A stretch of DNA of 32,346 nucleotides from NCBI GenBank assembly GCA_016748015.1, contig JAAOMT010000142.1:12469-44814 (forward strand). Direction: 5' to 3'. The translations under genes and the position numbers were made by a program. This document shows positions 3,601 through 26,373 of the stretch, one piece after another (the first letter of the stretch is position 1; each line of letters starts with the position of its first letter). Source of the DNA: Geosiphon pyriformis uo1. Taxonomy: Eukaryota; Fungi; Glomeromycota. A model generated the notes under the pieces. That model ran no database searches and was not told where the DNA came from. It saw nothing but the letters and a program-made list of their open reading frames with translations.

Positions 3601-3978
3601 AAAAGAAATTACTCTTAAATAAAAATTTTTTTAAAAAAAAATTTAATATATATATATATATTTCAAATATTTTTCATTAGTAAGAGTTCAATTTTACAAA
3701 TATTCATCAATTAAAGGCTTTTTAATTATAGCATTTTGCAGGAAAAATAATTTTCTTAACCACTTTTAAATTTTTAATTAAATAAAATTTTGAGATATTA
3801 ATACTTTTTTATTTATATTAGAAATTAACAAAAAAACAATAGGCTGCTAGAAATCTAAAACAAGTTTCAATTTATTTTAATAATAATATTGTTACAGTTG
3901 AAACCCATAATTTTTATTAGTTATCACATGTATTAATCACTGATGTCATATAATTAACCACTCTATTTTTAGATAGTA

Positions 3979-4110
3979 ATCATTGACCTAATCAATGATC
4001 TGACCATTGACCTAATCATTAACCTGATCATTGACCTGATCAATGACCTGATTATTGACCTGATCATTGACCTGATCATTAACCTAGTCGTTAACCTGGT
4101 CATTGACTAC
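3979..4110 (+). repeat. 11 x 12-bp tandem array (ATCATTGACCTG) in the U3 region of the 5' LTR
   Basis: Counted directly; a second copy lies at 11059-11190. Confidence 0.95.
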
Positions 4111-4120
4111 TTTCAATAGC

Positions 4121-4180
4121 TATATAAGCAATGAGTCTCTTAGCTGTAGAAAATCATCTCTTAGACAAAAATCAAATAAA
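4121..4180 (+). promoter_or_regulatory. LTR TATA box (TATATAA, 4121-4127) and poly(A) signal (AATAAA, 4175-4180)
   Basis: Positioned directly after the U3 repeat array; identical in the 3' LTR. Confidence 0.65.
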
Positions 4181-4634
4181 TAAAAATAACAACTTTCATC
4201 TTAATCACTCTCTTATCGCTAATTTCTCTTTTTCTACCTTTAAGTATCCGAACATCTTAGGATAAAAGATTACTTGTTGGTCTTTTCCTAACATATATAA
4301 TTGTAGCATTTGAAGATTATTTGAATAAACGTAACTGAAGAGCACAAGTTGATATCTGATATTGAATTCTAAGAGTGCCGACATGAGGCATAGAATTATA
4401 CCAGTGGTTATCAATTGTTGACAGTATGAACTATCTCTCTACCTTCAGATTCTCTTGTTATCTTTTGAAAAAAATAGTGACTGAGATATTTTATGAGACT
4501 GATCTTGCACATTGAATCCATACTCATTCAATTCACTCATTGAAGTTGAATCCTCTTTGATTATTTCTATTACTCTATAATCCTGTTCTCCCTTGTTATA
4601 CATTAGCTTGTTACTCCAACCTGTAACATAAAAG

Positions 4635-4651
4635 TAGTGCTCCCTGTGAGG
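4635..4651 (+). promoter_or_regulatory. E1 primer-binding site, tRNA-Ile(UAU)-type
   Basis: TAGTGCTCCCTGTGAGG (TGG>TAG by transition), 6 nt after the LTR. It resembles the complement of eukaryotic tRNA-Ile(UAU) 3' ends (TGGTGCTCCAGGTGAGG). Confidence 0.75.
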
Positions 4652-4680
4652 TTGTCAAAATTCACTTATTTTCTTATTGT

Positions 4681-6237
4681 ATGGGTGATTATTCATACTT
4701 GTTACAGCAATCAGAAGAACACTTTGCAGCACACAACAGAAACAACCTAGATTTCATTGAACTTAATCCTTTGCTATCCTGCTTGATTTGCTTCCCCCTT
4801 GAAGAACAATCCAGTAGACAATTCCAAAACTTTTGGAACTGGTTACTAAATGAGCATTCAGCTGAAACCTACACAGCTTATACAACCTATTACTTTGACC
4901 AAGCTTATTTTGAAAATGACTTTGAAGAAAGAAACAACAGTATCAATTAGCTCTTATATTCTGCAACCTTTAAACAACAGCCCTCTGATTTCGAATATCT
5001 GAATCATCAAATCCACATTTGGATTGCTGTCCATCAAGCAACTGAAACTCTCTTTGAAACAGAAGAAGAAAGCTACCAAACTGCCCCTGTTTTTGACCTT
5101 TTATCAAGCAAATCAGACTCGTCTACACAAACAGCTACCCTTAAACCAATGGCTAATGACTCCATGCAAGCAAACATTCTGGCCGCCCTTCAAGGTATAC
5201 AAACTGCTCTAGGAAGAAGAAATAATACCCCACTACCACTATTTAGAGGTGATGTACAGAATTCAATTGAATGGTTGGATGATTTTGAGAGAGCTGCCAC
5301 AGCCAACCAGTATGATGAAGAATACAAGTTCCAAATTGTTGGTGGCTACCTCCAAGGCTCTCCTACTACCTGGTTCTCACAAGAAACAGATACCAATGCT
5401 CAACACAGAATAATCAGATGAATACCAATCAATGCTGGAGAAAAAAATACCTCTTTCACTACCTGATTTGAGGCCAAGTTCAGAACCCCAATATTAATAT
5501 CCAAATGGTGCATGGAATTAGAAAAAAAAACTCAAGGCCCTAGAGAAGTAGTGACTGAATATGCCAAAGCTATTAGAAAGCTAATCAAATGTGTAGACTC
5601 TGGGAGAAACTGAACAGAAGAACAAAAGATTCATTCCTTCACAAAAGAATTGAGAACTGATTTATCTTATGCTCTCTGGCCTCTCTTGGCCCTGAAAGAC
5701 AACCCTATAATGGACATGGCCATTGAACTTGCTCAAAAAATTAAAGACAACCAAAGAATACATTTGAGATCTACACATCCAGTTTTTGCTCCTGCTCCTG
5801 TTATGGCTCCTGTCCCTCAAATAGCTATTGCTTCTTTTGCTGCCCAAATTCAAGATCCAAATGAACAATTAATTAACAGACTCACAACCAATCTTGTCCA
5901 GTTATTAGAACCTTTGGCATAAGCAGTCAGAGATAACCAGCAACCACCAAGACCTAAATATGAATCTCATTTTAACCAGCCCCAGCAACCTCCCTATCAA
6001 AGACAGCAAAATTGTGGTCCACCTGTGTGCTATTGTTGTGGATTAACTGGACATTATTCAAAAGATTATAACAATCCTCCACTGCCTCCTCTAGCTCCCA
6101 GAAACAATGACAACTAAAACAACAGACCCAACAACAACAACAATGTTCCCAATCAAAGACCCAATCATGCCAACATCAATTTCTTTGGAAAGGATCCCCT
6201 AGTTGAAGCCACTGTTTATCAGTCTTTAAACTGGTAG
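4681..6237 (+). pseudogene. gag: E1 Gag: N-terminal extension, retrotransposon capsid domain, CCHC zinc knuckle
   Basis: ORFs at 4681, 5149 and 5650 share one frame broken by transition-type stops. Motifs FRGDVQNSIEWLDDFERAATAN and QGPREVVTEY; knuckle CYCCGLTGHYSKDY (last C>Y). Confidence 0.9.
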
Positions 6238-6273
6238 GCGCATCTCCAAAGGGTGAGAGTACAAGCCAACCAG
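6225..6273 (+). promoter_or_regulatory. Putative -1 programmed ribosomal frameshift signal: T TTA AAC plus downstream stem-loop
   Basis: The heptamer at 6225-6231 is in X XXY YYZ phase with gag; the gag stop TAG is at 6235-6237 and pol is in the -1 frame. CTGGTAGGC (6231-6239) can pair with GCCAACCAG (6265-6273), with an inner TCTC/GAGA stem. Confidence 0.8.
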
Positions 6274-8915
6274 AAGAAAACTCCTTTTTCGCTTTTAACT
6301 TAACTGATGATGACCATGACATGGATGAACTAGCAATCAACATCTCAGAACCAACCAGAAAGAAGAAGAAAGCCAAGGTCGATTTTGTTCTAGATCCCAA
6401 CAAAGTCTCAACTTCTGCTGCTGATAACAATGAGCCATCAAAGGCTAAAATCTTTAAAAATCTCTCAAAGTTGGAACCCCCAGAAATTGTACAAAAATCT
6501 GGACCCTATTCCGTTGTCAAAGATCTCATGAAAACCCCAGCACATATTATCTTTGGCCAGTTAATGATTCACCCACAGTTCAGAAAAGATCTTCGCAAAT
6601 CTTTGATCCCAAAAAAGAAGACACCAAAAATCAACAAACACTCTCGCCAAGCTGGACTTGCTAACAACAGCAATGTCACCTCTCTGATTTGTAAAGCCCA
6701 AGTGGCTGAATACTTCATTGACTTAATTCTGAACAGTGGATTATCTGTTAGTGTTATTGCCAAACACTTCTTAGAAGCAATTGGTAGAAAAATTGATGAA
6801 CCTTCTACCAGACCAATGACCAATGTACATGGTGACAAAAAGAAAGGATTGGGTATTGCCAAAGCTGTTCCTGTTTGCATCAATAGAATCAGCATTGAAA
6901 CTGACATGGAAGTTTCTGAAGCCAAGGAATACACCATCATTGTTGGCAATAAATGGCTCAAGAAAGCAAAAGCTTTGCTTAATTATGAACTTTGTAAATT
7001 AACTATTAGATGTAGTAAAAAACCCATTGTGGTTAAATGTCGCCATTGGACAACTTCCCCAGTACCCAAACAAAACCAAGAAGAAGAACAATCAGATAAA
7101 TCAAATGATGAAGAGAGTGATGAAGAAGAAGAACAAGAAGAACAAAAAGAAACTACTGAACTCACCTATACCACCTTCACCAGCAATGGCAAACCACTAG
7201 ACAATGTTAAAGCAGACAAAGAAAGAATCATTGTAAATGGCAAGCTAATCTGCTGGCCTTATTATGATATTCTTAGAAGAATCTTTGAAAAAAAATCTGG
7301 CAAGAAAGCCAAATACAGTTTTTGGTAGCATGGTCCTTGTTCCCGGTGTTGGTGCAACAAATCCTTGTATTCTCCAAGTGATGAATACAAATCATGCCTG
7401 ATCTATTACAGAGATTGGGAACCAATCAGTTTGATACTCAGAGAAGAATTGAAAGAAGTACAGAAGTCTTTTGAGAATGAACCACCTGAGATTTAATCAC
7501 TGATTGTAAAACAAAAAAAACTCTCACCAGAAGAAAGAAAAATAGACATTGAAAATTTGCTGGCTAGAAATAGCCCAGTTATCTCCAAAAAAGATGATAC
7601 CCCTGGACATACCTATGTGATACAACACACCATTACCACCAGAGAAACTCGACCCATCTATTTGAAGCCTTATCAATCCAATCAGCACAATGATGAGTTT
7701 ATCAAGAAAGAGATAAACCGGATGAAAAAACTTGGATTCATACAAAAAACCAAGAGTGAATGGGCTTTTCCAGTTGTAGTGGTATCCAAAAAAAGTGGAA
7801 CACTATGCTTCTGTGTCGACTACTGCCAATTAAATGCCATTACTGAAAGAGACATGTACCCACTTCTCAAGATTGATGCAATGTTAGACCAATTCAAAGA
7901 TGCTGCTTTCTTCTCAACTATTGACTTAACTGCTGAATTCTGGCAAGTAGAGATGGATCCAGAAAGCAGAAAAAAAACTGCCTTCATCATCAAGTATGGC
8001 ACCTATGAATTCACAGTCATGCCTTTTGGTCTCACCAACACCTCTCCCACTTTTCAATACTTAATGGATAAAGTATTTAAATCAGTTAAGGAAAACTTTG
8101 TTCTAGTCTATTTGGATAACATAATGGTATACTCAAAAACCTGGAATGAACACCTGGAACATTTGCAAAAGGTTTTTGACCTCCTCAGAAATGCTGGCCT
8201 CAAGATCAAGCCAATTAAATCTTTCTTTGGAAAACAATCTACCCAGTTCCTTGGTCATCTTATCACAAAAGATGGAATTTTTCCTGACCCAGCCAAAGTT
8301 GAAAAAGTCCAAAACATCAAACAACCAATGAACATTCATGAATTATGCTCTTTTCTTGGTTTGGCCTCTTATTATTGCAAATTTGTCAAGGATTTCTCCA
8401 AAATCGCCTCTCCTCTCAATCAGCTACTTAGGAAAAATGGCAATTACCATTGGGAAACACATCAGCAAAAAGCCTTTGAAACTTTAAAGGAAAAACTGGT
8501 TACAGAATCCATTCTCAAGCCACCTGATATAGATCAACCCTTTATCCTTCACACTGATACATCTGGCTTTGGACTTGGTGCTGTTCTCTCCCAGAAAGAT
8601 GAAAATAGCAAAGAACATGCCATAGCCTATGCCAGTAAAACTTTTTCCCCAGCAGAACAGAACTATTCAGTCACTGAACAAAAATGCTTAGCAGTAGTAT
8701 GGTCCACCAATTACTGGAGCAAGTATCTTCTTGGTGTGAAGTTTTTGGTGGTAACAGATCACCAAGCTTTGGTTTGGCTGTGCAACAAAAAGAGGCTAGA
8801 ACACAAATGGATAACTTGCTGGATACTCCACTTGGATGAATTCGACTATGACATTCAACATTGCAAAAAAGCTAATTATCAAAACACCGACATTCTCTCC
8901 AGACTTATCATCTAG
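6225..8915 (+). pseudogene. pol: E1 Pol: aspartic protease, acidic/Cys-rich spacer, reverse transcriptase, RNase H (no integrase fused)
   Basis: LILNSGLSVSVI (DSG>NSG), IIVGNKWL, LCFCVDY, MPFGLTN, VYLDNI (YLDD>YLDN), LHTDTSGFGLGAVLSQ, TDHQAL. Stops at 7326 (TGG>TAG) and 7494 (CAA>TAA). Confidence 0.95.
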
Positions 8916-8988
8916 TGACAGAACAACCCTCTTAAACCAAACCAACTTAATTATTAGTAATTCCCCCTTTTTTTTGACAAACACGATA

Positions 8989-10251
8989 ATGGACTTGAAC
9001 AACTACTCTGCCTTAATGGAATTTTTGGGTAAAAAACAATACACACTGAAATACACACAACAACAAAGAGAACATTTGCACAAACAATCAAATTTCTATT
9101 TGATTTGCCAGAACTAACTTTATAAAAGAAATAGAAAAGATCCTGACTGCCCCCAGAGAGTCATTAGATTTGAAAAAAGAGAAATTGTGATCTACAATAT
9201 GTACACTGATCCATTAGTTGGACACTTTGGAAAAACAAAAACAATTCAGAAAACTTTAGCTCACTATTATTGGCCTACCTTGGGAAAAGACATTCCTGAA
9301 TACATTAAAACCTGTGATATCTGCCAAAGAAGAGGAAAACCCAATTGCAAAGAAAATATCCATCCAATCTCTGTTGGTCAACTCTTTGACAGAATTGGTA
9401 TAGATGTTGTTGGACCTTTAACAATAACTTCTGATGGCAACAGATACATTATTACAGTTACTGACTATCTTACAAAGTGGGTAGAAGCAAGAGCCACTCC
9501 AGACCAAACAGCAATCTCAATAGTCAATTTCATTTATGAAGATATTATTTGTCACCATGGCTGCCCCAAAGAACTTTTATCTGACAGAGGAAGAGCTTTT
9601 CTTAGTACACTTGTTAAAGAACTTTGTAGAAAAATGGGAATACATCACAAACTTTCTTCTCCTTATCACTCCCAAACAAATGGCCTAGTAGAATGTTTCA
9701 ATAGAACACTATGTGAAACTCTAGCCAAAACCAGTGAAAAAACAAATTTATGGGACAAAGTACTGCCTTCAGCTTTGTTTACTTATAGAACTGTAAATCA
9801 TGACATAACAAGTTATAAACTCTTTTATTTATTCTATGGACAAATGGCAATTCTACCAATAGAAACTGACATTGAGACAATATTTTTTGAAGAAATAACA
9901 ATAGGGAATTACAAAGACATTTTGCAAAGAAGACTTGGTACCATTCTTGACTCATTAGTAGAAGCACAGATAATTGCCTTTAAAAAGATAAAACAATTCC
10001 AAGAGAAGCTTAAGAAAAAGAAAACATATAAAACACTTTTCTTAAGTGTTGATAACTTAGTTTTAGAATACCATTCAGACAGAGACAATGTCTATGGTGA
10101 TAAATTCTCTAGCCAGTGGAAAGGACTCTTTATAGTTAACAAAGTTTTGAACAATAGTTCTTATATCTTACAAGATCAATATAGAACAATCTTCAATAAT
10201 TGCCCTGTTCATGGCACACGACTCAAGCAATATCACAAACAACTTGATTAG
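8989..10251 (+). pseudogene. E1 integrase in its own ORF (HHCC, rve core, C-terminal SH3-like; no chromodomain)
   Basis: ATG at 8989 (MDLNNY), 73 nt after the pol stop and in the +1 frame. GHFG..YYWP..CDICQ, IGIDVVGP, SDRGRAF, QTNGLVE. One internal stop at 9115. Confidence 0.92.
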
Positions 10252-10343
10252 TTACCTGTTGTGGTAATACCGACCCAAATGATCAACAAAAATCAGATAT
10301 AAATAAATGCATCATTCCCAAAACAGAGGTATCTTCAATTAAT

Positions 10344-11000
10344 ATGAACAATTATTTCCTAGATCAAAACATTCAAAACGCTTTCTACACTCTCTATGAG
10401 TACTGGATCAAAAATTATCCAAATGCTACTCTGACCATTGGAAAACAAACCACCATAACTGATAACAGTGGAACACATACTGTTATTAGACCAAAGAAAA
10501 CCACTACCAGAAGAGAAAGAATTGGTAGCAAAATGGATAAGTATTTGCTGGAAAGCATAACAGCAGCAATACTTACACCTTCTATGACAATTGGAAAAAT
10601 GATTAAAGAAATCTTGCTCATAGACAAAAACTTGTCATATGGAAGGCAACTAGAACTCTATGGTTGTCTTGGTGAAATCATAAAAGAAATGAAGCTCATA
10701 AAGAAAACAACTTCAGAGATACAAGTGGAAATTTTGGGCATTATACGTTTAGATGTCCCAAGAGTTTTGACCATTGCAAGAAGAGCCAAAACTCTTATAC
10801 AAAGATTTGGTCTCTTGGATACAAAGCTTATTTCGCCTCAAGTACTATATATTCTATCCACAAAAGACTTCAATAAACTAGTTAGTTTTGAGTTAGACAA
10901 AACCCTTCAATTAGAATATCCTATAAATAGCTTGATTTCACCAGAACTCAATCTCTTTGAAGAAGATGATGTTATGGTTGAAACCCATAATTTTTATTAG
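10344..11000 (+). CDS. E1 extra 3' ORF (218 aa, unknown function, env position), reading through the PPT into the 3' LTR
   Basis: Uninterrupted ATG-initiated ORF between integrase and LTR, with no signal peptide or TM segment. Motif-level similarity to the E2 3' ORF. Confidence 0.75.
   Translation: MNNYFLDQNIQNAFYTLYEYWIKNYPNATLTIGKQTTITDNSGTHTVIRPKKTTTRRERIGSKMDKYLLESITAAILTPSMTIGKMIKEILLIDKNLSYGRQLELYGCLGEIIKEMKLIKKTTSEIQVEILGIIRLDVPRVLTIARRAKTLIQRFGLLDTKLISPQVLYILSTKDFNKLVSFELDKTLQLEYPINSLISPELNLFEEDDVMVETHNFY
10959..10969 (+). promoter_or_regulatory. E1 polypurine tract (G>A eroded)
   Basis: GAAGAAGATGA abuts the TG of the 3' LTR. Confidence 0.7.
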
Positions 11001-11708
11001 TTATCACATGTATTAGTCACTAATGTCATATAATTAGCCACTCTATTTTTAGATAGTAATCATTGACCTGATTAATGACCTGACCATTGACCTGATTATT
11101 GACCTGATCATTGACCTGATCAATGACCTAATTGTTGACCTAATCATTGACCTGATTATTGACCTAGCTGTTGACTTGGTCATTGACCACTTTCAATAGC
11201 TATATAAGCAATGAGTCTCTTAGCTGTAAAAAATCATCTTTTAGACAAAAATCAAATAAATAAAAATAACAACTTTTATCTCAATCACTCTCTTATTGCT
11301 AATTTCCCTTTCCCTACTTTTAAGTATCTGAACATTTTAGGATAAAAGATTACTTGTTGGCTTTTTTCTGACGTATATAATTGTAGCATTTGAAGATTAT
11401 TTGAATAAACATGACTGAAGAGCACAAGTTGATACCTAATATTGAATTTTAAGAGCACCGACATGAGGCATAGAATTATATCAGCAGTTATCAATTTTTA
11501 ACAGTACGGACTATTCCTCTACCTTCAGATTCCCTTGTTATCTTTTGAAAAGAATAGCGACTGAAATATTTTATAAGACTGATCTTGCACATTGAATCCA
11601 TACTCATTCAATTTGCTCATTGAAGTTGAATCCTCTTTGATTATTTCCATCACCCTACAATTCTGTTCTCTTTTGCTATCTGTTAGCTTGTTACTCCAAC
11701 TCGTAACA
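10970..11708 (+). repeat. E1 3' LTR
   Basis: About 90% identical to 3890-4628; followed by the TSD ATAT. Confidence 0.97.
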
Positions 11709-12923
11709 ATATAAAGTTGCCCAAAGAATTTTTTATAAATTCCTAATTATTAAAAGATATGAATTTATTATTTTTTAATTTACTTCAAGATATTAAAATA
11801 TCTTTAAGTAAATCCACAAAATCAACTCAAAAGTTTAATATTGCAATTACAGAACATGGTTTGAGTGGAGGTCAGTTTTCTAAATATTTTTCTATTTTAA
11901 AGTTTTAAAGTCAAGTATTTTTTTTAACATTAAAAATTTTTTTAACTATATATATATATTAGTATATGCTTGTATTGCTGTATTTAAATAGATATTGAAA
12001 AGAGATAAAACTTGGCCAGATACTAATATAAATACAATAAGATATTATTTATATTTATGAAGCTTTAAGAATTGAAAATAAGTATTTTAGTAATGTTATC
12101 AATATAAAAATTATTCATCATTGTTTTACTTATGGAAATAATTATGTGCTATACTTTCCTTTGTATTCAAATGAGTGGAACCATTTTGGTACTAGATTGA
12201 ATTATTGAATAATTGTAATTGTTCTGTTGACAATGTGTATTGGGACTGTAATTCTATTTTGCCTTCAATTGATCAAAAAAATTTATGGTCCTATTTGTCG
12301 TATTCTTTAGAAAATATGATTAGTATTAATTTATATTAAATTTAAGAATTTTTCAGTAAAAAAACATTGAAAAATTGTTTTTCTTATTTTTTAAAAGTGT
12401 AATGCAGATTAATTAATAAATAAAGTTCCAAACAAATTATTTTATAATGAGCCTTATTTTGGGGTTAAAATAGACAATTGTAAATCAATTAATAAGGTAG
12501 GAAGTTTTGAAGAAATTATAAGAATGATTAACAACAGCAAATATTTTTTGATTATTAAATTAATTAATATATCAATAATTAATATTTTTAAATAAGACTT
12601 TATATATATTGATTTAAATTATATATTTATAATTTCTTTATTAATAATTACATTTCAAATTAATATTAAAGAGAATCTATTTAAGATTTATTAAAGAAAC
12701 TATTTTTCATAAAAATTCTTAAAAGAAATTGTTACTTTTTAAAGCAATATTTTCTAAATATTCAAACTTTAATTTTTTTATCTTATTCCTTCAACTTTGA
12801 ATTTTATATTATTACTGCTGCTAAAAGACATCATGAAAGTTCTCAAAGTTTAATTATAATTAAGTAAATAATTAAAAGTTAAAAAATAAAAGTTTCAACT
12901 ATAACAATATTATTTTTAACAAA

Positions 12924-14739: not shown

Positions 14740-15733
14740 TATTATGAATAAACTTGGTAGGATAGGAAGATAATAATATTTGGTGTTCTCAATTATTGGT
14801 AAGGCATATTTTGCATAATTCTGGTGGCTTAATCTTGATTATCAGTCTTTGAAGATCTTATTTTACTGGTTGTAAATTTACACATTGAGTTCTTTGGTTA
14901 TAAGACACAGAGTTTTGGTTCTTATTAATTGCAATTTTTTATAAAAATAAGCATAGTTATTAGGGTCCAGCATTGTTTTTTCGCCCTTCTGATAAGCTAT
15001 TAAGATAACATTAATATCCAAAAACCTAGAAGGAGCTTTTTTTTTTACCAGGTTATTACAAAGTTTATTTCCAGACAGTTAATTTTACTATGTTGCCATT
15101 TCACAAAGAATAAAGAAAAGAAATAAAAAAAATAAAAATAAAAATAAAAATAAAAAAAAAAATAAAAAAAAAAAGAATTATTATTGTAAATCACTATAAT
15201 TAAGAGTCATTGGTCCAAATTGTTAATAGTTTAAGGCAATTATACTAAGAGCATCTGTCCTGAAACAAAGATATGAAACAATGATTAATTCACATAAAAT
15301 TCACAAAGTTCGAGAGCATAAATTCATAATTCTAATTTCTCAATAATTGATTTATTTTAGAAGATGAAGATGAAATAGAATAAATAATAGAAAGAGTAAG
15401 GATATTTGATTCTTGTCTAGTGGTTCATATCTATCTGTTTTTTTACTTTTCTCAACTACTCATTTTTATATATATTTTTGGTTTTACAGGATTGCTTTTT
15501 GATTGTTCTGTTATTGTTAACTATTGCTTTGCTATTTCTGTAATTACTTCATTCTTTTACATTAGTACTAGTTATCCTATGTTATAACACTTTATCTAGT
15601 ATTATTACATATTATTCTGTATTATCCCATATTATAATGCATTATTCTGTGTTATCTTACATTATTGTATATTATTCTGTATTATGTCACATTTTGGTCA
15701 TAACTTTGGATTGGTTTTTCTATTCAGATAATA
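14740..15733 (-). repeat. E2 3' LTR (994 bp) with ~30-bp U3 repeats and an A-rich simple repeat
   Basis: 14740-~15344 matches 23758-24382 directly; ~15364-15733 matches 25994-26373 inverted. Termini are eroded to TA..TA. Confidence 0.92.
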
Positions 15734-16461
15734 TTATCTCTCTCTTTTTAGAATTGAGCTCCTGCAAAATTATATATATTTGTTATCATGACTTTATTTA
15801 TGTAGTATTTGATAATTGTGTTGAGTATTGTTCTTCATAGGTCTTTAAACTGTTAATTGGTTATTTGTATTATATTGTTAACTATTATAGTCTTTATAGA
15901 TCTATATAATAGTACATTTAGACAATATTAGAAAGCAGCATATAGTCAATATGCTGTTTTGTAATATAGGGTCAGATTGCTTTTTCCTATGAATTTCTTT
16001 ACTTGTTATATTGCTTTTTTGTTAAAAGTTTTCTGGCTGAAGTCTTCATATGATGTCTTCAAATTTAATTGTTCACCAATTTTGTAGAACCAATATGCTG
16101 ATGGAAGTTTCTCTTTCCATTCCTGGGCATTGTCTAATGTCCACTTCTCTGTTTTAGGGAGTTTGGTCCTATGAGCTAAAGCTTTTTTGATTTTTTCAAG
16201 CTCAGAGACCACATATCTTTTATAAACTTCTTTTATTTCTGGTTCCATCCAAGAAAAAGCTTTTTGCCAATTTTTTCTCTCAGGCATTGGGTAAAAGTAG
16301 GACTATTTAGTTTTAGTTGAACTTTTGTTCTCTTTTTTTCTACTCCTATCTTTATATCGTATCTTTTTTCTATTAATTGTTACTTCTATTTGAGCAGAAG
16401 ATTGTTGAATTACATTAAATAATTGTTTTGAGAGTTGTAGAATTTGATCTAACAAGTTCAT
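15725..16461 (-). pseudogene. E2 extra 3' ORF (~240 codons, unknown function), reading through the PPT into the LTR
   Basis: MNLLDQILQ... The ORFs 16303-16671 and 16006-16287 and the downstream sequence share one frame, broken by stops consistent with CAA/CGA/CAG transitions, and end FAGAQF*KERDNII. Confidence 0.65.
15734..15750 (-). promoter_or_regulatory. E2 polypurine tract
   Basis: AAAAAGAGAGAGATAA immediately precedes the 3' LTR on the minus strand. Confidence 0.75.
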
Positions 16462-16599
16462 ATTGAAAGTTCTATTGTTTTTTGCTGTTTTTTGAATGCT
16501 ATATATATTTGAATTCTCTAATTTAATTTGCTGCATATTGTCTATAATATGATAACAATAATTGGTTCCAGATCTCATGATATATCTTTTGATTTGATT

Positions 16600-17908
16600 A
16601 ATAAAATTTGTGTTACTAGTTGAGGTACTGATGATGATAATTTTTGTTTTACATAATAAATTTTTAACCAATTTCTATGCACTATTTTTTTTAGAATTCT
16701 GTCTTCCAATTGTAATTTGTAAACTCCATTATCTAAAACTTCGTGTATATGGAATGGACCATCTCACTTTGGGTCAAACTTTCCACTTCATTGTTTCTCA
16801 GCTTTTGTACAATGTAACAGTACTTGGTCTCCAATCTTGAATTCCATTGGTTGTTCAGATAGTTTTTTATTATGTCTTTTTTTATTGTTGTTCCTAAGCA
16901 TTACTAATGTTATCAGTTGCTGTTCTATGATTATTTTCTAATATTTCTATAAGCTGGTATGTTTTATGGTATAAGGTTACTTCAAAATTCTCTTTGGTGA
17001 TAGCTTCTATCAAGTACAACTGTATTTTTTTTTAATAGGTAGAGTGGTTTTTTTTCTATAGACTAATTTAAATAGTGTGAACTAAGTCATATTTTGTTTT
17101 AGTGTTTAGTATACAAAAAGTACAGAAGATATAAATAAGTCCCATTTTTGTTCATTTTCATAACTTATTTTTGCTAATGCTTCATATAGTGTTCAGTTAA
17201 ATCATTCTACCAATCTATTTATTTGTGAGTAATATGGTGATGATAAAAGCTGTTTTATTCCAAACCATTGATTTAATTTAGTTAACATATTATTTACAAA
17301 ATGTGTTTCTTGATCAGATAGCAGTTTTTTCAGACATCCATGTCTGCAAATTAGCTCTTGGTGTATGAACTCAGTTATTGTTTTCGCATTTGCTACTTAG
17401 ATAGCTTTGGCTTTTGGCCATTTTGTTAAATAGTCTATGGTTACAGCAATATAACAATTTTTTTTGAATGTTATGAAAAGAGAACCAACCAAATCAATTC
17501 CAATTCTATCAAATAGATTTCTAACTGGAATGAGTTGAAGAGGTTCCATTGTTCTGACTTCTTCTCTTTGCTGACATAAGTTACAATTAAACACATATTC
17601 AAAAATGTCTTTGTACATTATTGGCCAATAGTATAAATTTAGGATTCTTTTAAGGGTAGCATCTTTGTTAAAGTGTTCTGCAGTTAGATCAAAATGTATA
17701 CTGTGTAATATAGTTTCTTTTTTTTTGTTTTTGATAACTTGTTGTGAGTGAAGTGGTTTTGGCATTCTCATTAATATAGTTGATTGTCTTAAATAAAATA
17801 ATTTCAGGCTTGTTTTCATATAGTACTTTATTCCTGTTGAAATAGTATTTCCTTGAAACATAGTGTTGATAGATACTGATATAGTTGGTAATAATTAGTT
17901 GTGTCCAT
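16600..17908 (-). pseudogene. E2 integrase in its own ORF (no chromodomain)
   Basis: ATG at 17908 (MDTTNYYQL), 10 nt after the RNase H stop, +1 frame. HFDLTAEHF..YYWP..CNLCQ, IGIDLVG, SDQETHF, FKIGDQVLL..GPF. Contains stops and a frameshift. Confidence 0.9.
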
Positions 17909-17918
17909 GGGTCTGAGA

Positions 17919-19330
17919 TTAGGTTTGTGGCATTCTCAACAAACTGTTAGCATTGATGTTTTTGGATCTTTTCTTGTAATAAACTTTGAGTAGAAATTGT
18001 TGCAAATAAGTACTCTATTTTGCATATTTTCTCTTTAGTTATAGATTATTGAGTAATCAAACAAGTCCTTTATGATCAGTATATAAGTCAAAGTGCAAGC
18101 TAAAATAATGTTTCCATGTCTGTACAGTCTAATAAATGACAAAACATTTCAGATCTGTTGTGCTGTAATTTTTTTCTGCTGAACTAGTGCTATGACTGGT
18201 ATAAGCAATTGGATGTTTTCTATTGTCTGGTTTTATTTGTGATAAAACTGCTTCTAGAGTATTTTTCAAGATGTCTGTAGTAATAATGAACTATTTAGTG
18301 AAATCTGGATAAATCAGGATTGGGGATGTGATCAATTGCTGCTTGAGATAGTTGAATGCTTTTTGTTGATCTTTTTTTTATAAGTATAGCACATATTTGA
18401 ACAACAAGTGGTAAAAAAGTTTTGTGATAAGTAAAAATCCTTTGACAAATTGGCAGTAATATTTTGCTAATTCTAAAAATCTTCATAACTCTTAAAGGTT
18501 GATTGGGGCTGAAAAATCTTTAACTTTTTGGACCTTGTTCAGGTCAGGTTTGACTTCATTTTTGTCAATCATGTGTTCTAAAAATTTCAACTCGGTTTTC
18601 CCAAAGAAACATTTTTTAAGATTAAGTTTTAATTCAGCATTTTAAAAGTATTTAAAGACTTGTTGAAGGTACAGCAGATAATTATCAAATGTTTCAAAGA
18701 ACATGTTTGTGTTGTCTAAATAAACTATGACTGATTTTCAAAAAATTTTTTTGTACATAACATTCATAAGGCATTGGAATGTAACAGAAGCATTGCAAAG
18801 TCTAAAGGGCATTATATTGAATTCAATATTTCTGTCTCAAGTGGTAAATGATGTTTTTTCTTTATTTTTAAGATCTATTTTGATCTGCCAATATTTACTG
18901 GCTAGATTTAATGACAAGAACCTTTTTTTTTTCTAGATTGTCCAGGATTTTTTGTATGAGGGAGTAGTGTAATTATCTCTTTGGGTAACACTATTTAATT
19001 TTTGGTAATTCACACAAAATTGTATTTTTCTGTTTTTTTTGGTGATCAGAACTACTGAGAAGAATCAAAAGCTTAACAATTTTTTGATTAAGTCATTGTT
19101 GAGCATTCATTGGACTTCTTGTTTGATAAGATTGTTACCAGATAAGAGTACTTGATAAGTCTGCTGTTTAATAAGTCATGCATCTTCCATATCAATTTGA
19201 TGCTTTACAATGTCAGTGTATTCAAACTTATTTTCACTGGTAAAAACATTAGTGTATTGATTTAAAAGAATCTTAAGTTGAATTTGCTAGAGAGTATTCA
19301 GGTTTTCCAAATGTAGTTTGTCAATTTTTT
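17919..19330 (-). pseudogene. pol: E2 reverse transcriptase and RNase H
   Basis: IQFCVNYQKLN, MPFRLCNA, VYLDN (18711-18716 region), TTDILKNTLEAVLSQ, YTDHKGL; many stops. Confidence 0.92.
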
Positions 19331-19744
19331 CTGGCATAAACAGGTAATTTATTTTGGCAAGTTCTATACTTGTGAGATAATATCACAAAATAAAAATAGC
19401 TGTGTAAAATCTGGAATGAGCTGGAGTTTTTTGGAATATTAGATGTTTGGTGAAATAGAATTAACGAGAGTCTCTTTGAGGATTTCAATTACATTTTCTG
19501 TAAGGTTGTGAATGAGGATTTTGAAGTGTTTATGGATTTTGGCTGGTAGATATAAGTTAGCAATATTTGCTAAAGAACAGATTTTAGGATTGGCTTCAAA
19601 TAACAAGACTTAATCTTGGATCTTTTAATTTATCTTGAGAATATATTGTCAGTAAAAGGAGATAGAAATAACTGTATTGGTGTAAATAAGTTCTACCTAA
19701 TTACTATCTTCCTCTATAAAATTGATTAGTACATTTTCTTTTTT

Positions 19745-20150
19745 ACTTGATCCAAATCTGTTGATTCCTTGGACAGTGAGGCCTAATTCTTCTTGGGTTG
19801 TTATCAGGATTAATTGGGGTATTTTGACTAAAAATAGGAAAATAGCTTGGAAAATCTTTTTTTGTAATTTTATTTTGTAAGATCTGTTCGAATTGTTCTG
19901 TAGCATTACAATGATGTTTTCCATATAACTGGCATTAATAATTTCTTTTTTTATGTTAATTTTTTTTTTGGCTAAATTAGATCAAAAAACAACTTGTACT
20001 ATTGTACTAACAGGAATTTTTAATGCTATTTTAAGATCTATTGTTACTAGGGAATATGGGGCTATAACTATGGTTGATTGTCCAGGGTATTATAGATCAA
20101 AACCAGCATTGGTGTTATGCACTTTTTCAGAGCAGATTTTTTTCTTATTG
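19745..20150 (-). pseudogene. dut: E2 trimeric dUTPase domain between protease and RT
   Basis: Motif 1 AGFDL (~20094-20107), motif 2 remnant (*SNLAKK), motif 3 remnant (IINASYMENI), motif 4 KIFQAIF, motif 5 QGINRFGSS. Confidence 0.88.
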
Positions 20151-20159
20151 TTACTGTAT

Positions 20160-21190
20160 TATTTTAATTCTAATTCTTTGAATAGATCAAGATACATGAG
20201 ATATTGTTCTGTTTTAGTATTCTCAATTGGATCTTGAAATAACATGTCCTTAGTGATTAATTCCTCTTCTATTTTGGGTTCTGGTAGTTTGGTGATTAGG
20301 TATAGTTTTCTTGGAGGTGAGTTAAATATGATATTGCATTTGTTACAATACTGAAAGTAATAAGAGATCAAACAATGATTGTACAGTTTTGTGTTTAGGT
20401 CAGCTAGTCTTTGTTTTTGCTCTTTTTTAGTCAATGCCAAGTTCTGGTAGTGCTTATGGAAGTATTCTGGGTTATTTTCAATGTTGCCAAAGATGTTAAA
20501 AGTCATAACATATTCAGATTCTGAAAGGAATAAGGGGTTGTTTTTAATTTCCAGTAATTTCCTGGTTGTAGTGCTTTCTGCTTTTACACTTGCCATTCTT
20601 CAAATCTTATGTTTATCATGAGGATACTTATCCAATTATCATAATGCTCATTTCCAAGTGTCATTAATTGGAGTTTTTTTTTGTATCCAATTATTAATCA
20701 AGATAGTGTATTGACATGCTTTATCGCATGTTCCTCCTCTGCCAGGAACATTGTTTTATAGTCTTTCATCTGGCAGAATTTTACCACAGGCAAGGCATGA
20801 TGTATTGTTCTATTTGTTTTGTCATTTTGGTCTACCAAATTTTTTCAACACACAAAGTCTGTAGTAATGTTTGGTGGTAGTTGACAATTCTTTGTCATCT
20901 CTGATATATGCACTCATAGAAGATAACTTTTTCTCACAGTTAACATAAATTAATTTTGGGGTTCAATATTATTTATTTTTTGACTTAGAACAGAATAGTT
21001 TGCAGGTGCTAATTATAGTTCTTTTTCTGTTTTTCTTTTTCTCTTTTCTTCTCAAGTTGGTAGTGAGAGTAATTTTGTTCGAAAATTGTTTACTTATGAA
21101 ACTTAATAGATTTCTATTGTTAGTGATAGTGTTGTGTCTTTGAATTCAATTAATGGTTGCTTTAAACTTTGGACTTTGAAGTGTCTGTAC
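20160..21190 (-). other. E2 ~340-codon Cys-rich insert between protease and dUTPase
   Basis: Remnants ICVNCEK, CLACGK, TCDKACQY and NHCLISYYFQYCNKCN; includes ORF 20159-20596. Confidence 0.6.
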
Positions 21191-21560
21191 ATAGCCAGAA
21201 CTCAGACATGTTGTTCATTAAAAGTAATCTGTAATTCCTGTATGTTCCAGTTAAGAATGGCATGGGCTTTGGCCAACCAGTTGTTTTCAATGAGAGCTTA
21301 ATATTGCATGGCTTCCATGATTAGAACTTTTGTAGAAATTTGAATTCTGTTAATTTCAAAAAGAAGTTATTGATTTCTCTGATTGAGGTTTTAGTATTGC
21401 TATCTGTGGTAATAATTTGGGTGGTTACAGTACGATCTACTTGGTGATCTAATTAATCCATGAGTTGTTTTGTTATTATACTGCCTGCTGATTCACTATC
21501 AAAAATTAATTTAATGTTTATGTTTTTGACTCTAGTATTAGTGTATAGGGCCATAATTGG
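21190..21560 (-). pseudogene. E2 aspartic protease
   Basis: KLIFDSESAGSII (DSG>DSE; D at 21498-21500) and ALIENNWLAK. Confidence 0.88.
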
Positions 21561-21759
21561 TTTGTCTTGATTTATGGCAGCTTCACTGAAAAGACTATTT
21601 GTGTTTAGACTGTCAATGTCAAAAGAGAAGATAGCAGCAAGAATGATATCTTTAGTGATAGTGGTAGGTGGAATAGTATTGTTGGTTTGATTTCATCTTG
21701 AAGAGTTGGGAGTTTTTCCTACATTTTTTTTTTCTAAAAGTGTAACACTATAAAAATCC

Positions 21760-23720
21760 TGGTTTTTAGTGAGACTAAGATATAAGACTTGGTTAAGGTA
21801 TTTGGTTGGTACTGGTCAAGATGGGACATTACTATGATTTAGGAATCATAATAATACACTGTTAGTTGGCATTTAATTGTTGCTGGAGTTTTTTCATTCT
21901 TGGTTGTAATCAATTACATGATGTTTAGATTGGTTATTAACAGGGTTTTGGTACTAGAGTGCTGTTTGAGCCATTGACTGTAATGACTAGTAGTAGTTTT
22001 AAGACAGTTGCTAAGTATAATGAATTTGTTGTGAGTATTGAGACAGTTAATATTAAAACATAGGGTATTGAAATACCATATTTTAAGAATATCTTAGTTG
22101 TTGATATTGATTTTCTTGATTTTGGTCCATTACTTTCTTATAATAGTTCTGGGCAATAGTAACAATTACAAAAATCAGATTTCTAAGATTGTTGGTATTG
22201 CTGATGATTTTGTTGTTATTGGTATCTGTTATTATTACTATCTCTTTGTTGTGGTAGCTAGTAGAATCCTACAATACTGCTAAAAATCTTTCAATTTTCT
22301 GAGTTAATTTTTTACTTAATTGAGTTATTTTTGTGTTAATATTAAATGTTTCATTAATAGCCAGATTAATGGCTTAAGTATGAATAGTCTTTTGTTCTAC
22401 TGACTTAAAGTTACAAGCAAAAATAACTGCCTCTTGTAGGTTTGTCAGGTAATAAGATCTTACAGATTGGAGAAGGCTGTTCTTTAATCTTTTGATGAAT
22501 TAATTAAAGATTTGTGCCACAGTGTAGTAGTCTCTTTTAATGGCCTAGATTTAATAAAAAATTTGGTTAAATCGTCTAAAATAAGTGGTTACTGCTTTAT
22601 GATCTTTTTGTTTTATAATACTGAACTGATTTTGTAATCTGATAAGAGTGTTGGGGTCACAAAAGTATTGCAGAAAGGCAAGTTTAAAGACAGTGAAGTC
22701 GGTTGGTTTCTTTGCAAGGCTTTGATATCATGAGTCTGCAGTTCCAGTCAGAAAGAATGGCAATGTTTGAATGGTTCTATTATCATCCCAATTGTTGGCA
22801 GTAATGACTTTCTTGGCTTCTGCAATGCATATATATGTGTCATCTTTTTTACTAGAGAATTTTTCTAATTTGGCAATATCTCAGTAAGCCATGATCTGAT
22901 GGGTAAGTAAAGTCTTACTGGTTAATGCTAAGGGGTTTAGTGTTTGTATGCTAGGGTGTTCTCCTGGTGCTAATTCTGGTTGTTTCTCTTTGTTAATTTT
23001 CTTAATGGGCTGGAGGATAGCTGTTTTTTCAGAGAGAGTAGTTGATAATTCAATCAAGAATTGGATTGGTAATAATTCTCATGTCAACATATTTCTATCT
23101 GTTTTATTAATTGTTGGGGTGAGATTTCCAAACAATGATCCATATTCTCCTAATAATTTGGTCCAATTGTGTTGACCCCAAGGGTGTGGATTTTTAGGAA
23201 TTTGTGGTGTTTTTGACTGGATTTTCAGGGGTGGGTTGAATACAATTTTACTTTGGGATGTCTAATAGTATGATAAAGTTGTTGAAGAGAGAAATTTTGG
23301 TTTTTTGTTGACCATGAACTTGGCTTGAGCAGTTGCAGGGTTGTTGAATTTGTTTTTGTGTTTCTTAGAGTCGGATTTCACTGGTTGTTGTACTTAAAAA
23401 AATTGTTTTGTCATGTAATATTTAATGTCTGTATTGATTATATACAGAGTTTTAACAATTGCTTAGGTAGTTATGGCTGTTAAGTACCTTAATAAGCTTT
23501 GATGGATTTGTTCTTTCAGTTTTCCTGTGTCGGTTGCACAGTATAATAAGCAGTCAATTTTTGCATTGATATAGTTACAAAAATCACTTTCTGCATAAGT
23601 GATTTCTGCTGGTATTCTTAGGTCTTTTCAAAAGTATTGAAATAATGCTCTTCTGTATAGAGAGTGGTCCTTTCCTACTGTTCTAATAGTTACTACTTTT
23701 GTGAATTTCTGGGTTACTCT
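21760..23720 (-). pseudogene. gag: E2 Gag: long N-terminal extension, capsid domain, Gln-rich C-terminus; in frame with protease
   Basis: IAKLEKFSSKKDD, AEAKKVITANNW, KQKDHKAVTTY; partial knuckle CNCYYC. The start position is approximate. Confidence 0.8.
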
Positions 23721-23738
23721 GTTTCTGTGAATTTATAA

Positions 23739-23755
23739 TCTTATAAAGAGCACCA
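23739..23755 (-). promoter_or_regulatory. E2 primer-binding site, same tRNA-Ile type as E1
   Basis: TGGTGCTCTTTATAAGA, 2 nt from the LTR; differs from the E1 PBS only by transitions. Confidence 0.75.
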
Positions 23756-23757
23756 AA

Positions 23758-24382
23758 TATTATGGGTAAACTTGGTGAGATAGGAAGATGGTAATGTTTA
23801 ATGTTCTCAATTATTGGTAAGGTGTGTTTCACATAATTCCAGTTGCTTAATCTTGATTATCAGTCTCTGAAAGTCTTATTTTACTGGTTGTGAATTTATT
23901 TATTTAGTTTTTTGGTTATAAGGCACAGAGTTTTGATTTTTGCTGATTGCAACTTCTTATAAAAGTGAGCTTTCTTCTCCGAGCTAATGAGTGCAGTCAT
24001 TAGAGTCTGGCATTGTTTTTTTGCTCTTTTAGTAAGCTATTAAGATAATGTTAATATCCAAAAACCTAGAGAGAGCTTTTTTTTTTACCAGGCTATCACA
24101 AAGTCTATTCCCAAACAGTCAATTTTACTATGTGCTACTCCACAAAGAATAAAGAAAATAAATAAAAATAAATAAAAATAAATAAAAAATAAATAAATAA
24201 AAAAAAAAAAAAAATTAGTATTGTTAATTGCCATAATTAAGAGCAATTGGTCCAAATCATTAATAGTTCGAGGTAATTATGCTAAGAGCATCTGTCCTAG
24301 AATAAAGGTACAAAACAATGATTAATTTACGTAAAATTCACAAAGTTTGAGAACATAAATTTGTGATTCTGATTTTCTTGGT
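23758..24382 (-). repeat. E2 5' LTR, R/U5-side portion (in place)
   Basis: Colinear with 14740-~15344; contains (AAAATAAATA)n at ~24150-24213. Confidence 0.92.
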
Positions 24383-25993
24383 TTAGTAAGTTTGATTGTT
24401 CAAAAAACAAACATTTTTCAAGATTTTTTAAGTTGAAGCAGCTTGTTGCTAAGATTATAAAGTATTAAAACTCTGAAAATCTTTCAGATTTTGATTGTCT
24501 TGTCAAAATTTGGTTAGCTATTAATAAGATTGTGACATCTAAGATTGTTGACATGATTCTGAATAGTGTGAATTCAATAGAGTTGGTTAAACATTTGTCA
24601 GTAATAAGAAAGGGGTATTAAAAGTCTAAGTATTATAAATCAAAAACTATTAAAAATATGGTTATTAGAAAAATAATTAACTGTCATATAAAAAATTTCT
24701 GTTCTAACAAAAAATAGATGATTAAGAGCATCTTGAAATGTCTATTTCACAAGATTGTTTTGGATCACTTGATAGTTGAGCTTAATAAAGTGAAACTTAA
24801 AGTGGATAAAATTATGATAAGATAGACAAAAAAATGGTCAATGCTTCCAAAAATGTCTGATCTTTGGTCTCATCAATATATGCTTTTGCACTATGTAGAC
24901 AATAATGTTTTTTTAAGTATTATAAAAGTAATTGATATAAGAGAGCTGTTTTTAGTTGTTGGTAATTTGCCAAATAATAAAGCTACTAGATTGTTAGGAA
25001 TACCTAATAAGCTTTAGAAGCATTATGGTAGTAAGGTGTTGATGTGTTTTTTGGAATTATTGAATTTATGTTTAACTTTAAGTGTAGTTCCAACTTCCTG
25101 GAAAAGGGTGTGGATTTTAATAATTCTGAAATCTTATGAATAAAATGGAGTTTTAACAAATACTAAGTCTATTGTATTAGTCTAAATGGCCCATAAGATC
25201 TTGTCAAAAATTCTCTCTGATCAGATATTATTAGCTTACAGCAAGTTTGATATTCTTTATGGTAATAATTTTTTGGTGTTGAAAGGTACTTTGACTTAGT
25301 CTTCTATTTTTGCTATTGGATTAGTTGTCAAGAATATTCGAAAAAAAAACAGAGAGCTTTAGTTAATACTACAGAATATGTGCAAAGCTTATGATTTAAT
25401 GGGCTGGCATCATTTGAAGACTAGCTTGTATTATATCAAAATGTGTGATCAGTTTATCAGCTTTTTTGGCAATATTTATGAAGATCAGTTTAATAGAGTA
25501 ATAACAGATTTTGGACTCTTGAGTAATTATAGAGTTCATAATAGTTTGAATTAAAATGAAATGTTTTCTGCACTCCTTTAAAAAATTTTCTATGATCTAC
25601 TTTTGTACAAGATAAAAAAACATAAGCACTTGTGTAAATACAGAATTGTTACTAAGTTTGTGATCAAGTCTGGCAGAGTTGAGACTATTGGAGAAAAAAC
25701 TTCTTTTTTTGCTACTAGTGCCTTTGTTGATGATACAATTTGGATCAAAAGTTGTTAAGCTTCTGCACAGTATATTTTGAACATTGCTAGTGAGTTCTTT
25801 GTTGTCAATGATATTTCAATTAATAATAATAAGATGGTGGCTATTCTTATTAATCAAGATGTCAAAACTGTTTCACTTTTGATTAATGGTCTGCCAATTT
25901 CAATTGCTAAAAAAAGTAAATTACACAAGTATTTTGGAATTTTTTTGTTTACTAAAAGTTTTTTCAAGTCTAGTTTGGCTTAGACTTATATGG
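24383..25993 (+). pseudogene. LINE ORF2 reverse-transcriptase segment (inverted relative to the rest of the LINE)
   Basis: LPNNKATRLLGIPN, ILIILKS, LQNMCKAYD, SAFVDDTIWI, HKYFGIF. Confidence 0.9.
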
Positions 25994-26373
25994 TATTATC
26001 CAAGTAAAAAAACTGATCCAAAGTTATGAAAAAATGTGACCAAAACGTGACATAATACAGAATAGTGTGCAATAATATAGGATAACACAGGATAATTTAT
26101 TATAATGTAGAATAACACAGAATAACATGTAATAACACTAGATAATATGTTATAACATAGAATAACTAGTATTAACATAGAAAAACGAAACAATAACAGA
26201 AATAGCAAAGCAATAGTTAGCAATAACAGAACAATCAGAAAACAATCCTGTAAAACCAAAAGAATATATAAAAACGAGTAGTTAAGAAAAGTAGAAAGAC
26301 AGATAAATACAAACCACTAGACAAAAATCAAATATCCTTATCTCTTTTATTATTTATTCTATTCCATTTTCAT
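25994..26373 (+). repeat. E2 5' LTR, U3 portion (inverted)
   Basis: Reverse complement of ~15364-15733; TATATAA at ~26266. Confidence 0.92.

Follow-up and report, generated by a model that had tools for sequence, protein, structure and literature searches.

Must the integrase (IN) of a Ty3/gypsy retrotransposon be made as the last domain of Pol? This question is raised by a 32,346-nucleotide stretch of the genome of the glomeromycote fungus Geosiphon pyriformis uo1 (GCA_016748015.1, contig JAAOMT010000142.1, positions 12,469 to 44,814; hereafter the window), in which a BLAST self-comparison found three long repeats and which holds two decayed Ty3/gypsy elements, E1 on the plus strand (3890-11708) and E2 on the minus strand (14740-26373). 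The usual Ty3/gypsy layout, with IN closing Pol, was found in neither. In E1, pol ends after the RNase H (RH) domain at a stop at 8916-8918 and IN starts in a different frame at an ATG at 8989; in E2, the RH stop (17921-17919) is followed by a 10-nt gap and an IN ATG at 17908, again in a different frame. Both INs begin with Met-Asp, and an extra 3' open reading frame (ORF), here called ORF4, is present in both elements. An original prediction, made from the letters alone, had proposed a separately initiated IN and an extra 3' ORF, and on both counts it was right.

The assignment to Ty3/gypsy comes from the long terminal repeats (LTRs), the primer-binding site (PBS), the polypurine tract, the domain order protease (PR), reverse transcriptase (RT), RH and IN, and an RT and IN that are nearest to those of Ty3/gypsy. 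Among PDB sequences only, the best match of the E1 RT was the Ty3 RT (E 4e-73; next 6e-43; foamy virus 2e-32) and the best match of IN was Ty3 Gag-Pol (E 4e-53; foamy virus 5e-33). E1 and E2 are, as predicted, two elements with unrelated LTRs and divergent proteins: self-BLAST gives no match between their LTRs, and they share 39% identity in RT-RH (387 columns) and 35% in IN (374 columns). Both are dead, killed by mutation, since CpG is nearly gone (observed/expected 0.14 and 0.09 in the two copies) and the catalytic motifs of E1 have decayed (protease LNSG, RT YLDN). Genomic copies were studied through the contigs of run X1 and through protein matches. The explanation that we find best overall, and consider probable, is a Ty3/gypsy lineage with a split-off IN gene and a helical ORF4 protein, in which IN is likely made by reinitiation.

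The integrase is a separate gene in related elements

IN homologues were collected as proteins (635 of 207-660 aa, a length filter that makes this search unable to reveal fused forms) and as loci, numbered with an L, that give the DNA context of IN relatives (80 metagenome loci and 48 from prokaryotic assemblies). Our survey of junctions covered 83 loci (L001-L080 and L084-L086) and left out the more distant L087-L131. RH lies upstream of IN in 45 of the 83 and is fused to it in none of these 45, which argues that the split is a lineage trait and not decay; the layout as a whole, with Pol ending at RH, a separate IN and a 3' ORF, is very probably such a trait. Among the distant loci left out, IN lies within a longer ORF in L087, L088 and L091, and L088 groups with fused elements.

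The proteins have the same character. Among the matches listed, 118 of 120 IN homologues have a Met start, mostly at the same position and as MD, ME or MN, and the chromodomain PF00385 is absent from the 120 stand-alone INs. The predicted lack of a chromodomain was confirmed by Pfam for the E1 IN; for E2 the negative covers only the N-terminal IN piece, the part scanned in frame. A search for longer proteins returned fused relatives that are mostly 31-43% identical. The top-ranked of these are gene models from Cetraspora and Rhizophagus, and because the RH end and the IN start are missing from them, their fusion reads as a predicted intron bridging two ORFs. One bridging model also contains ORF4, so that all three genes occur in one named species. 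For annotation this means that gene predictors splice RH to IN in such models and mask the split.

The junction of E1 itself is stable among its copies in run X1: a stop at 8913 is mostly a sense codon in these, the stop at 8916-8918 remains, and the sole indel present at 8% or more is one of 3 nt, with no frame-changing indel reaching 8%. Relatives of the E1 IN in viral contigs were not found in one scan, and another scan gave only three weak matches. Short contigs with these elements also occur in bacterial assemblies or metagenome-assembled genomes (L084, L085, L086 and L089), and these contigs are probably fungal contamination.

A conserved accessory gene follows the integrase

An ORF4 profile, partly built from the same loci against which it was scanned, matches the region after IN in 28 of the 37 loci with enough sequence, and the opposite strand never scored above 9.4 bits. 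The family comprises 648 clusters at 50% identity, with named members from Gigaspora, Rhizophagus and Cetraspora. E1 ORF4 has 130 protein matches, of which the 120 listed are all from G. pyriformis and up to 92% identical, and copies of ORF4 account for at least 120 of the "hypothetical proteins" annotated in Geosiphon. Judging from its substitutions, ORF4 is under purifying selection (dN 0.078 versus dS 1.08 for L006/L076, with the same trend in 13 pairs).

A second profile, made from divergent members and built without E1 or E2, gave as its top six-frame hits in the window E2 (18.7 bits) and E1 (16.9 bits). On single ORFs it scored 20.3 and 18.6 bits against shuffled maxima of 11.2 and 6.8. 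By this profile comparison, the 3' ORFs of E1 and E2 are divergent members of one family. The predicted run of the 3' ORF into the LTR was seen in E1, where ORF4 ends 31 nt inside the repeat, and not in E2, where the stop at 15748 lies 15 nt before it.

What the protein may do is suggested by models and composition. The family model is confident (predicted local distance difference test, pLDDT, 97) and consists entirely of helices, the core is net-positive in 140 of 140 members, and a transmembrane segment, taken as a Kyte-Doolittle window above 1.6, was found in 1 of 150. ORF4 is thus not an env gene, its core being basic and lacking membrane segments. No Pfam family was common to more than 1 of 30 members and no PHROG to more than 1 of 140; against PDB sequences there was nothing better than E 0.08, and Foldseek against PDB and BFVD gave no match, with best VIA Z scores of 4.5 and 4.4. 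Matches in the Atlas scored at most 0.85 and were unnamed or unrelated. Both E1 and E2 have tandem arrays at the 5' end of the LTR, and so do 17 of 24 loci in the corresponding region, a count made without a shuffled control. Our best guess is that ORF4 is likely a nucleic-acid-binding regulator; towards the binding of nucleic acid by itself, we lean only slightly. The "complex-retrovirus-like" character given to the elements in the original prediction is by analogy only, as ORF4 has no transmembrane segment and its accessory role is putative.

Several points weigh against this picture of a conserved, DNA- or RNA-binding gene. The ORF4 family is absent from 9 of the 37 loci, and the homology of the E1 and E2 members is weak with the main profile and becomes clear with the profile of divergent members alone. 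The hint of a helix-turn-helix (HTH) comes from matches with Z of at most 4.6 to a low-confidence model of E1 ORF4 (pLDDT 59), namely KorB (Z 4.6, root-mean-square deviation 4.8, 104 residues aligned), SopB (4.1) and Spo0J (3.6); ParB-type HTH proteins do not figure among the 50 best matches of the confident family model. In two of the nine loci, the ORF4 slot holds other genes, a NUDIX hydrolase ORF (L054:1945-2886) and an HTH-bearing ORF (L023:6546-6941).

A GCAGGAGCTC-like motif lies just 5' of the polypurine tract in both elements (window 10942-10951 and 15762-15753) and also in L001, L010, L015, L028, L032, L048, L056, L077 and L084. It is kept in different reading frames, which suggests a cis element.

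A distinct branch of Ty3/gypsy

In a tree of RT-RH plus IN, 19 rows with separate IN and 22 fused rows are divided by one branch with support of 93/94, found in 96% of 200 bootstraps. FastTree gave this branch 88 with RT-RH plus IN (26 and 33 rows), and 83 with RT-RH alone. On the other side of the balance, RT-RH alone in IQ-TREE requires four changes and yields no single clade, and IN alone supports the branch at only 31. The rows were, in addition, hand-chosen from a set collected with the separate-IN profile, and the trees are unrooted and include no named GyDB clade. E1 and E2 come out as sisters with RT-RH (96/93) and not in the concatenated tree; an approximately unbiased test of the sister relation gave p 0.355, and their grouping possibly results from a shared drift towards AT.

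Named carriers of these elements are Geosiphon, Rhizophagus, Gigaspora, Cetraspora and Entrophospora, and going by these records the lineage appears so far under a name only in arbuscular-mycorrhizal fungi (AMF) and their kin. The data support the split-off IN and ORF4 as the putative defining traits. We regard the lineage as a genuine variant of Ty3/gypsy that apparently has not been described, set apart here without GyDB, Repbase or REXdb references. The distinct lineage proposed in the original prediction is thereby upheld in its split-off IN and conserved accessory 3' gene; four ORFs as a fixed plan, a Cys insert in common and priming by tRNA-Ile vary or do not hold up and drop out of its definition.

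How the integrase may be made

We examined 57 distinct junctions, measuring each gap to the stop of the nearest upstream ORF. An A at position -3 precedes 51 of 71 IN starts as compared to 122 of 412 internal ATGs, and residue 2 of IN is D, E or N in 57 of 57. The spacers contain 31 ATGs where 64 are expected, 35 of 43 having none at all, and an IN-frame stop prevents fusion in 42 of 43. This combination of start context, second residue, ATG-poor spacers and blocking stops speaks against one shared frameshift and shows what appears to be dedicated initiation of IN. The stop-to-start gap ranges from -20 to +365 nt, with overlap in 11 of the 57 junctions, four of them as ATGA.

The stop/start overlaps and the short ATG-free gaps favor termination-reinitiation over a subgenomic RNA as the source of IN, a preference that we hold at about even odds. 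Under reinitiation, translation of Pol would end at the RH stop and ribosomes would restart at the IN ATG on the genomic RNA. This would tie the output of IN to the read-out of Pol and free IN from protease cleavage; an IN set free in this way would have to enter the particle by a path of its own, as the Pol of foamy viruses does through RNA. Possible ligands of the ORF4 protein are the LTR repeats and the RNA of the element that encodes it. Counting against reinitiation are the gaps of 125-365 nt and the eight ATG-containing spacers, both of which suit it less, and an E1 IN frame that is open from 8815 across the end of RH, so that a +1 shift is possible for the E1 family.

In one subgroup, a 48-nt covarying RNA-like structure stands just 5' of the IN ATG (L014:5188-5235, L049:4459-4506 and 22 other loci). 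It consists of an outer stem, an invariant 12-nt bulge, an inner stem and a conserved loop; 97.5% of cells are paired, 7 of 12 pairs have changed on both sides, and its model has 24 strong matches. It belongs to no Rfam family, and the model matches nothing in the window, neither E1 nor E2.

The alternative that survives best is that IN and ORF4 are separate genes expressed from subgenomic mRNAs, through an internal promoter, RNA cleavage or splicing. The long gaps and the hairpin directly 5' of the IN ATG in the one subgroup keep it in play; the strong start context and ATG-poor leaders would suit a short 5' untranslated region equally, and the gap length varies widely. There is also a precedent in the Pol of foamy viruses, which is described as the product of a spliced subgenomic RNA (PMC7828637); foamy viruses make their accessory proteins from subgenomic mRNAs as well. 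However, splice acceptors (branch point plus YAG) upstream of the IN ATG show no excess (12 of 57 versus 12.8 in shuffled sequences), the spacers were not seen to share any one promoter motif, and the recurrent overlaps of stop and start suggest translational coupling. We judge subgenomic expression to be a genuine contender with a minority share of the probability. It is far less plausible that IN is still joined to Pol by programmed frameshifting or readthrough, its ATG being incidental: the lineage does recode elsewhere, at -1 slippery sites and TGA-CTA stops, and the IN frame of E1 is open upstream of its ATG, but the RH/IN junctions are spread over all three frames (17/16/10), IN-frame stops interrupt nearly every spacer, and both the Met and the sequence around it are conserved. 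The weakest candidate, that the split and the 3' ORF arose as two old copies of a normal gag-pol element decayed, can draw on the heavy mutation of both copies (71 transitions to 2 transversions between the E1 LTRs, besides the CpG loss given above) and on two NCBI models from related fungi with RT-RH-IN in one protein, and is refuted by the same split in intact relatives, by the missing RH end and IN start in both fused models, by the purifying selection on ORF4 and by the lack of any frameshifting indel in the four ORFs of E1, where each internal stop is a single transition from a sense codon.

With IN as a separate gene, the lineage likely makes and regulates its IN differently from textbook retrotransposons. 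IN normally reaches the particle as part of Gag-Pol, and a large, recently intact lineage with a separate IN makes IN dosing and packaging without that tether testable. The one clade offers several recoding signals and, in ORF4, a large protein family whose model is confident yet matched no structure. A bolder reading would see here an undescribed lineage of "complex" metaviruses in fungi. Its members would be the first LTR retrotransposons to translate IN as a free protein, by stop-restart or RNA-structure-guided initiation, and their DNA-binding trans-regulator, of a new fold, would act on tandem repeats in the LTRs of the element itself or counter silencing by the host, so that fungi would have a parallel to the gene expression of foamy viruses; we consider this combination rather unlikely.

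Comparison with known elements

Ginger-type DNA transposons are stand-alone, Met-initiated, gypsy-like integrases. They differ from the present case in that IN here lies downstream of RT-RH (in the 45 loci) and, for E1 and E2, is enclosed by LTRs. Canonical Ty3/gypsy elements such as yeast Ty3 and the fungal chromoviruses have the same TG...CA LTRs, PBS, polypurine tract and order gag-PR-RT-RH-IN, whereas IN here is an ATG-started ORF without a chromodomain and is followed by ORF4. In passages of fungal surveys, gag and pol either form a single fused ORF or stand as two, IN is a part of pol, and most elements have a chromodomain (PMC2864245; PMC3248453). A passage of a review of IN positions distinguishes five states and does not mention a separate downstream ORF there (PMC2774666).

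Other systems share single features. A dUTPase between PR and RT, a position like that in E2, is described for PosPlaTy3-5 of Postia and for Phanerochaete and Tuber elements (PMC2864245), which the same passages do not describe with a separate IN. Plant Retand/Tat elements are reported to have an additional conserved ORF that lies after pol and before the 3' LTR, is antisense, carries TRP28 and is proposed to be regulatory (PMC11963269); ORF4 occupies the same slot, but is in sense orientation, has no Pfam family and has no membrane segment. From env-bearing or errantivirus-like elements, ORF4 differs in having no hydrophobic segment and a small all-alpha fold. Foamy viruses, whose Pol is described as made apart from Gag with its own packaging route and whose accessory genes lie 3' (PMC7828637), are similar in having an enzyme gene translated apart from Gag and accessory genes at the 3' side. 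There, however, the whole of Pol with its IN is expressed apart, by splicing; here the split concerns IN alone, no env is present, and RT is Ty3-like.

AMF transposon papers do not discuss this layout in the passages found, and we found no description of it in the literature searched, outside which lay Repbase, the subscription journals and supplementary material, including the structure table of Novikova and the AMF transposable-element library. PMC11952901 puts the share of LTR elements in the G. pyriformis genome at 41.2%. Given this figure and the 66,597 contigs of one run that lie on E1, the E1 family probably forms a major part of the LTR expansion in this fungus.

Structure of E1 and E2

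E1 begins with a 739-bp 5' LTR (3890..4628, TG...CA) that is 90.1% identical to its 3' LTR (10970..11708), has a 12-bp tandem array close to its 5' end (3979-4107) and is followed, after 6 nt, by the PBS (4635..4651). Its gag (5149..6237) was recognized by position and motif; it is a single frame with five internal stops and a decayed zinc knuckle, and had no Pfam match. A predicted -1 frameshift signal (6225..6272) combines the heptamer T TTA AAC with a stem-loop downstream of it (z -2.45). Gag ends three bases after the heptamer, whose phase suits a -1 shift into pol, and Gag-Pol of E1 would, with this arrangement, be made by -1 frameshifting. The pol ORF (6207..8918) has domain matches in the order PR, a C4 Cys motif, RT and RH and ends in a stop; the Cys motif (7326..7400) resembles RCWC-x(6-12)-CxxC with one Cys lost, as seen by comparison of loci. 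A 70-nt spacer without ATG (8919..8988) separates pol from IN (8989..10251), which has a zinc-binding domain, a DDE core and one internal stop. ORF4 (10344..11000) is intact at 218 aa, and a decayed polypurine tract stands just before the 3' LTR.

E2 is read on the minus strand. The 3' part of its 5' LTR is in place (23758..24375), as shown by self-comparison, and next to it lies a PBS like that of E1 but decayed (23739..23755). Pfam matches to gag (Retrotrans_gag) and protease lie in one frame (21200..23720, boundaries approximate), indels blurring the boundary of gag and pol. A Cys-containing insert (20146..20950) precedes a decayed dUTPase domain between PR/insert and RT (19742..20143; PF00692, E 4.7e-10, and PDB dUTPases), which the original prediction had overlooked. 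RT-RH (17919..19325; RVT_1 and RT_RNaseH) ends in TAA. IN (16572..17908) was identified by domain match and is broken by stops and an indel. ORF4 (15748..16578), found with the ORF4 profile, contains several stops, and its start may be further downstream. The 3' LTR (14740..15733) is about 994 bp long and has a 10/20-bp tandem array. The proposed four ORFs are shown for E1 only (gag, -1 frameshift, pol, IN, ORF4), the gag and PR matches of E2 lying in a single frame.

Target-site duplications (TSDs) of 4 bp had been proposed for both elements. E1 is flanked by ATAT on both sides (3886..3889 and 11709-11712), and a contig of run X1 with the empty site connects 3885 to 11709 with 4 letters in common. 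For E2, the flanks differ (ATGG and ATAA), and a 4-bp TSD is deduced from its insertion target, a non-LTR element of which an inverted piece lies at 24376..25993 on the plus strand. The 5' part of the E2 5' LTR, flipped by the inversion, follows (25994..26373, plus strand), preceded by the TSD copy ATGG at 25990-25993. Once 24376-26373 is taken as inverted, the reading of the non-LTR element runs on at both sides of E2, and it stays in frame with 4 duplicated bases removed, not with 5 or 6. We presume this element to be LINE-like (long interspersed nuclear element) from an FVDD motif; the piece has no Pfam match. Both the E2 5' LTR and the host LINE are split by the inversion, which is 2 kb long, has lost a little sequence at each end and is either genuine or a fault of the assembly. 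Most LTR retrotransposons have TSDs within a range of 4-6 bp according to a passage in PMC12440569, a range that takes in 4 bp.

Variation among relatives

Expression of gag-pol in relatives is fused, -1 frameshifted or interrupted by a TGA-CTA stop after PR. T TTA AAC occurs in the same phase in L006 and L023, as the heptamer in L001 and as a variant in L070. TGA-CTA is a readthrough context; an in-frame TGA followed by CTA or CTAG lies between PR and RT at L025:870, L042:2882, L055:780, L067:902, L073:3290 and L089:2879.

The Cys insert thought to be shared by E1 and E2 proved not to be homologous between them: the E1 type recurs in four loci (L001, L006, L023 and L045), and the E2 insert has no similarity to that of E1 or to the inserts of the loci tested. 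The tRNA-Ile type proposed for the PBS of E1 and E2 is a candidate assignment, and relatives have other PBSs. Exact PBS matches to tRNA 3' ends, scored against tRNAs of viral contigs and not of the host, have the anticodon CAT in 18 of 19 loci. The dUTPase is not a lineage trait either, as none was found in 41 ORFs from related loci. An RH C-terminal extension of 235-343 aa without a Pfam match occurs in L014, L028, L048, L049, L056 and L071 and also in L031, where it has a weak likeness to a thymidylate-kinase-like P-loop domain.

Other features of the window

Strong CpG loss extends over 3890-24375, and C-to-T changes between the LTRs occur in every dinucleotide context, most often CpA, which may reflect methylation decay or a process like repeat-induced point mutation. 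An Rfam scan of the window and five loci gave no match. A 40-nt segment at 12880-12919 is an 85% inverted match to the left junction of E1; it is AT-rich and possibly due to chance. Finally, a weak match to a DDE_1 transposase (E 0.002) was observed at 31488-31790.

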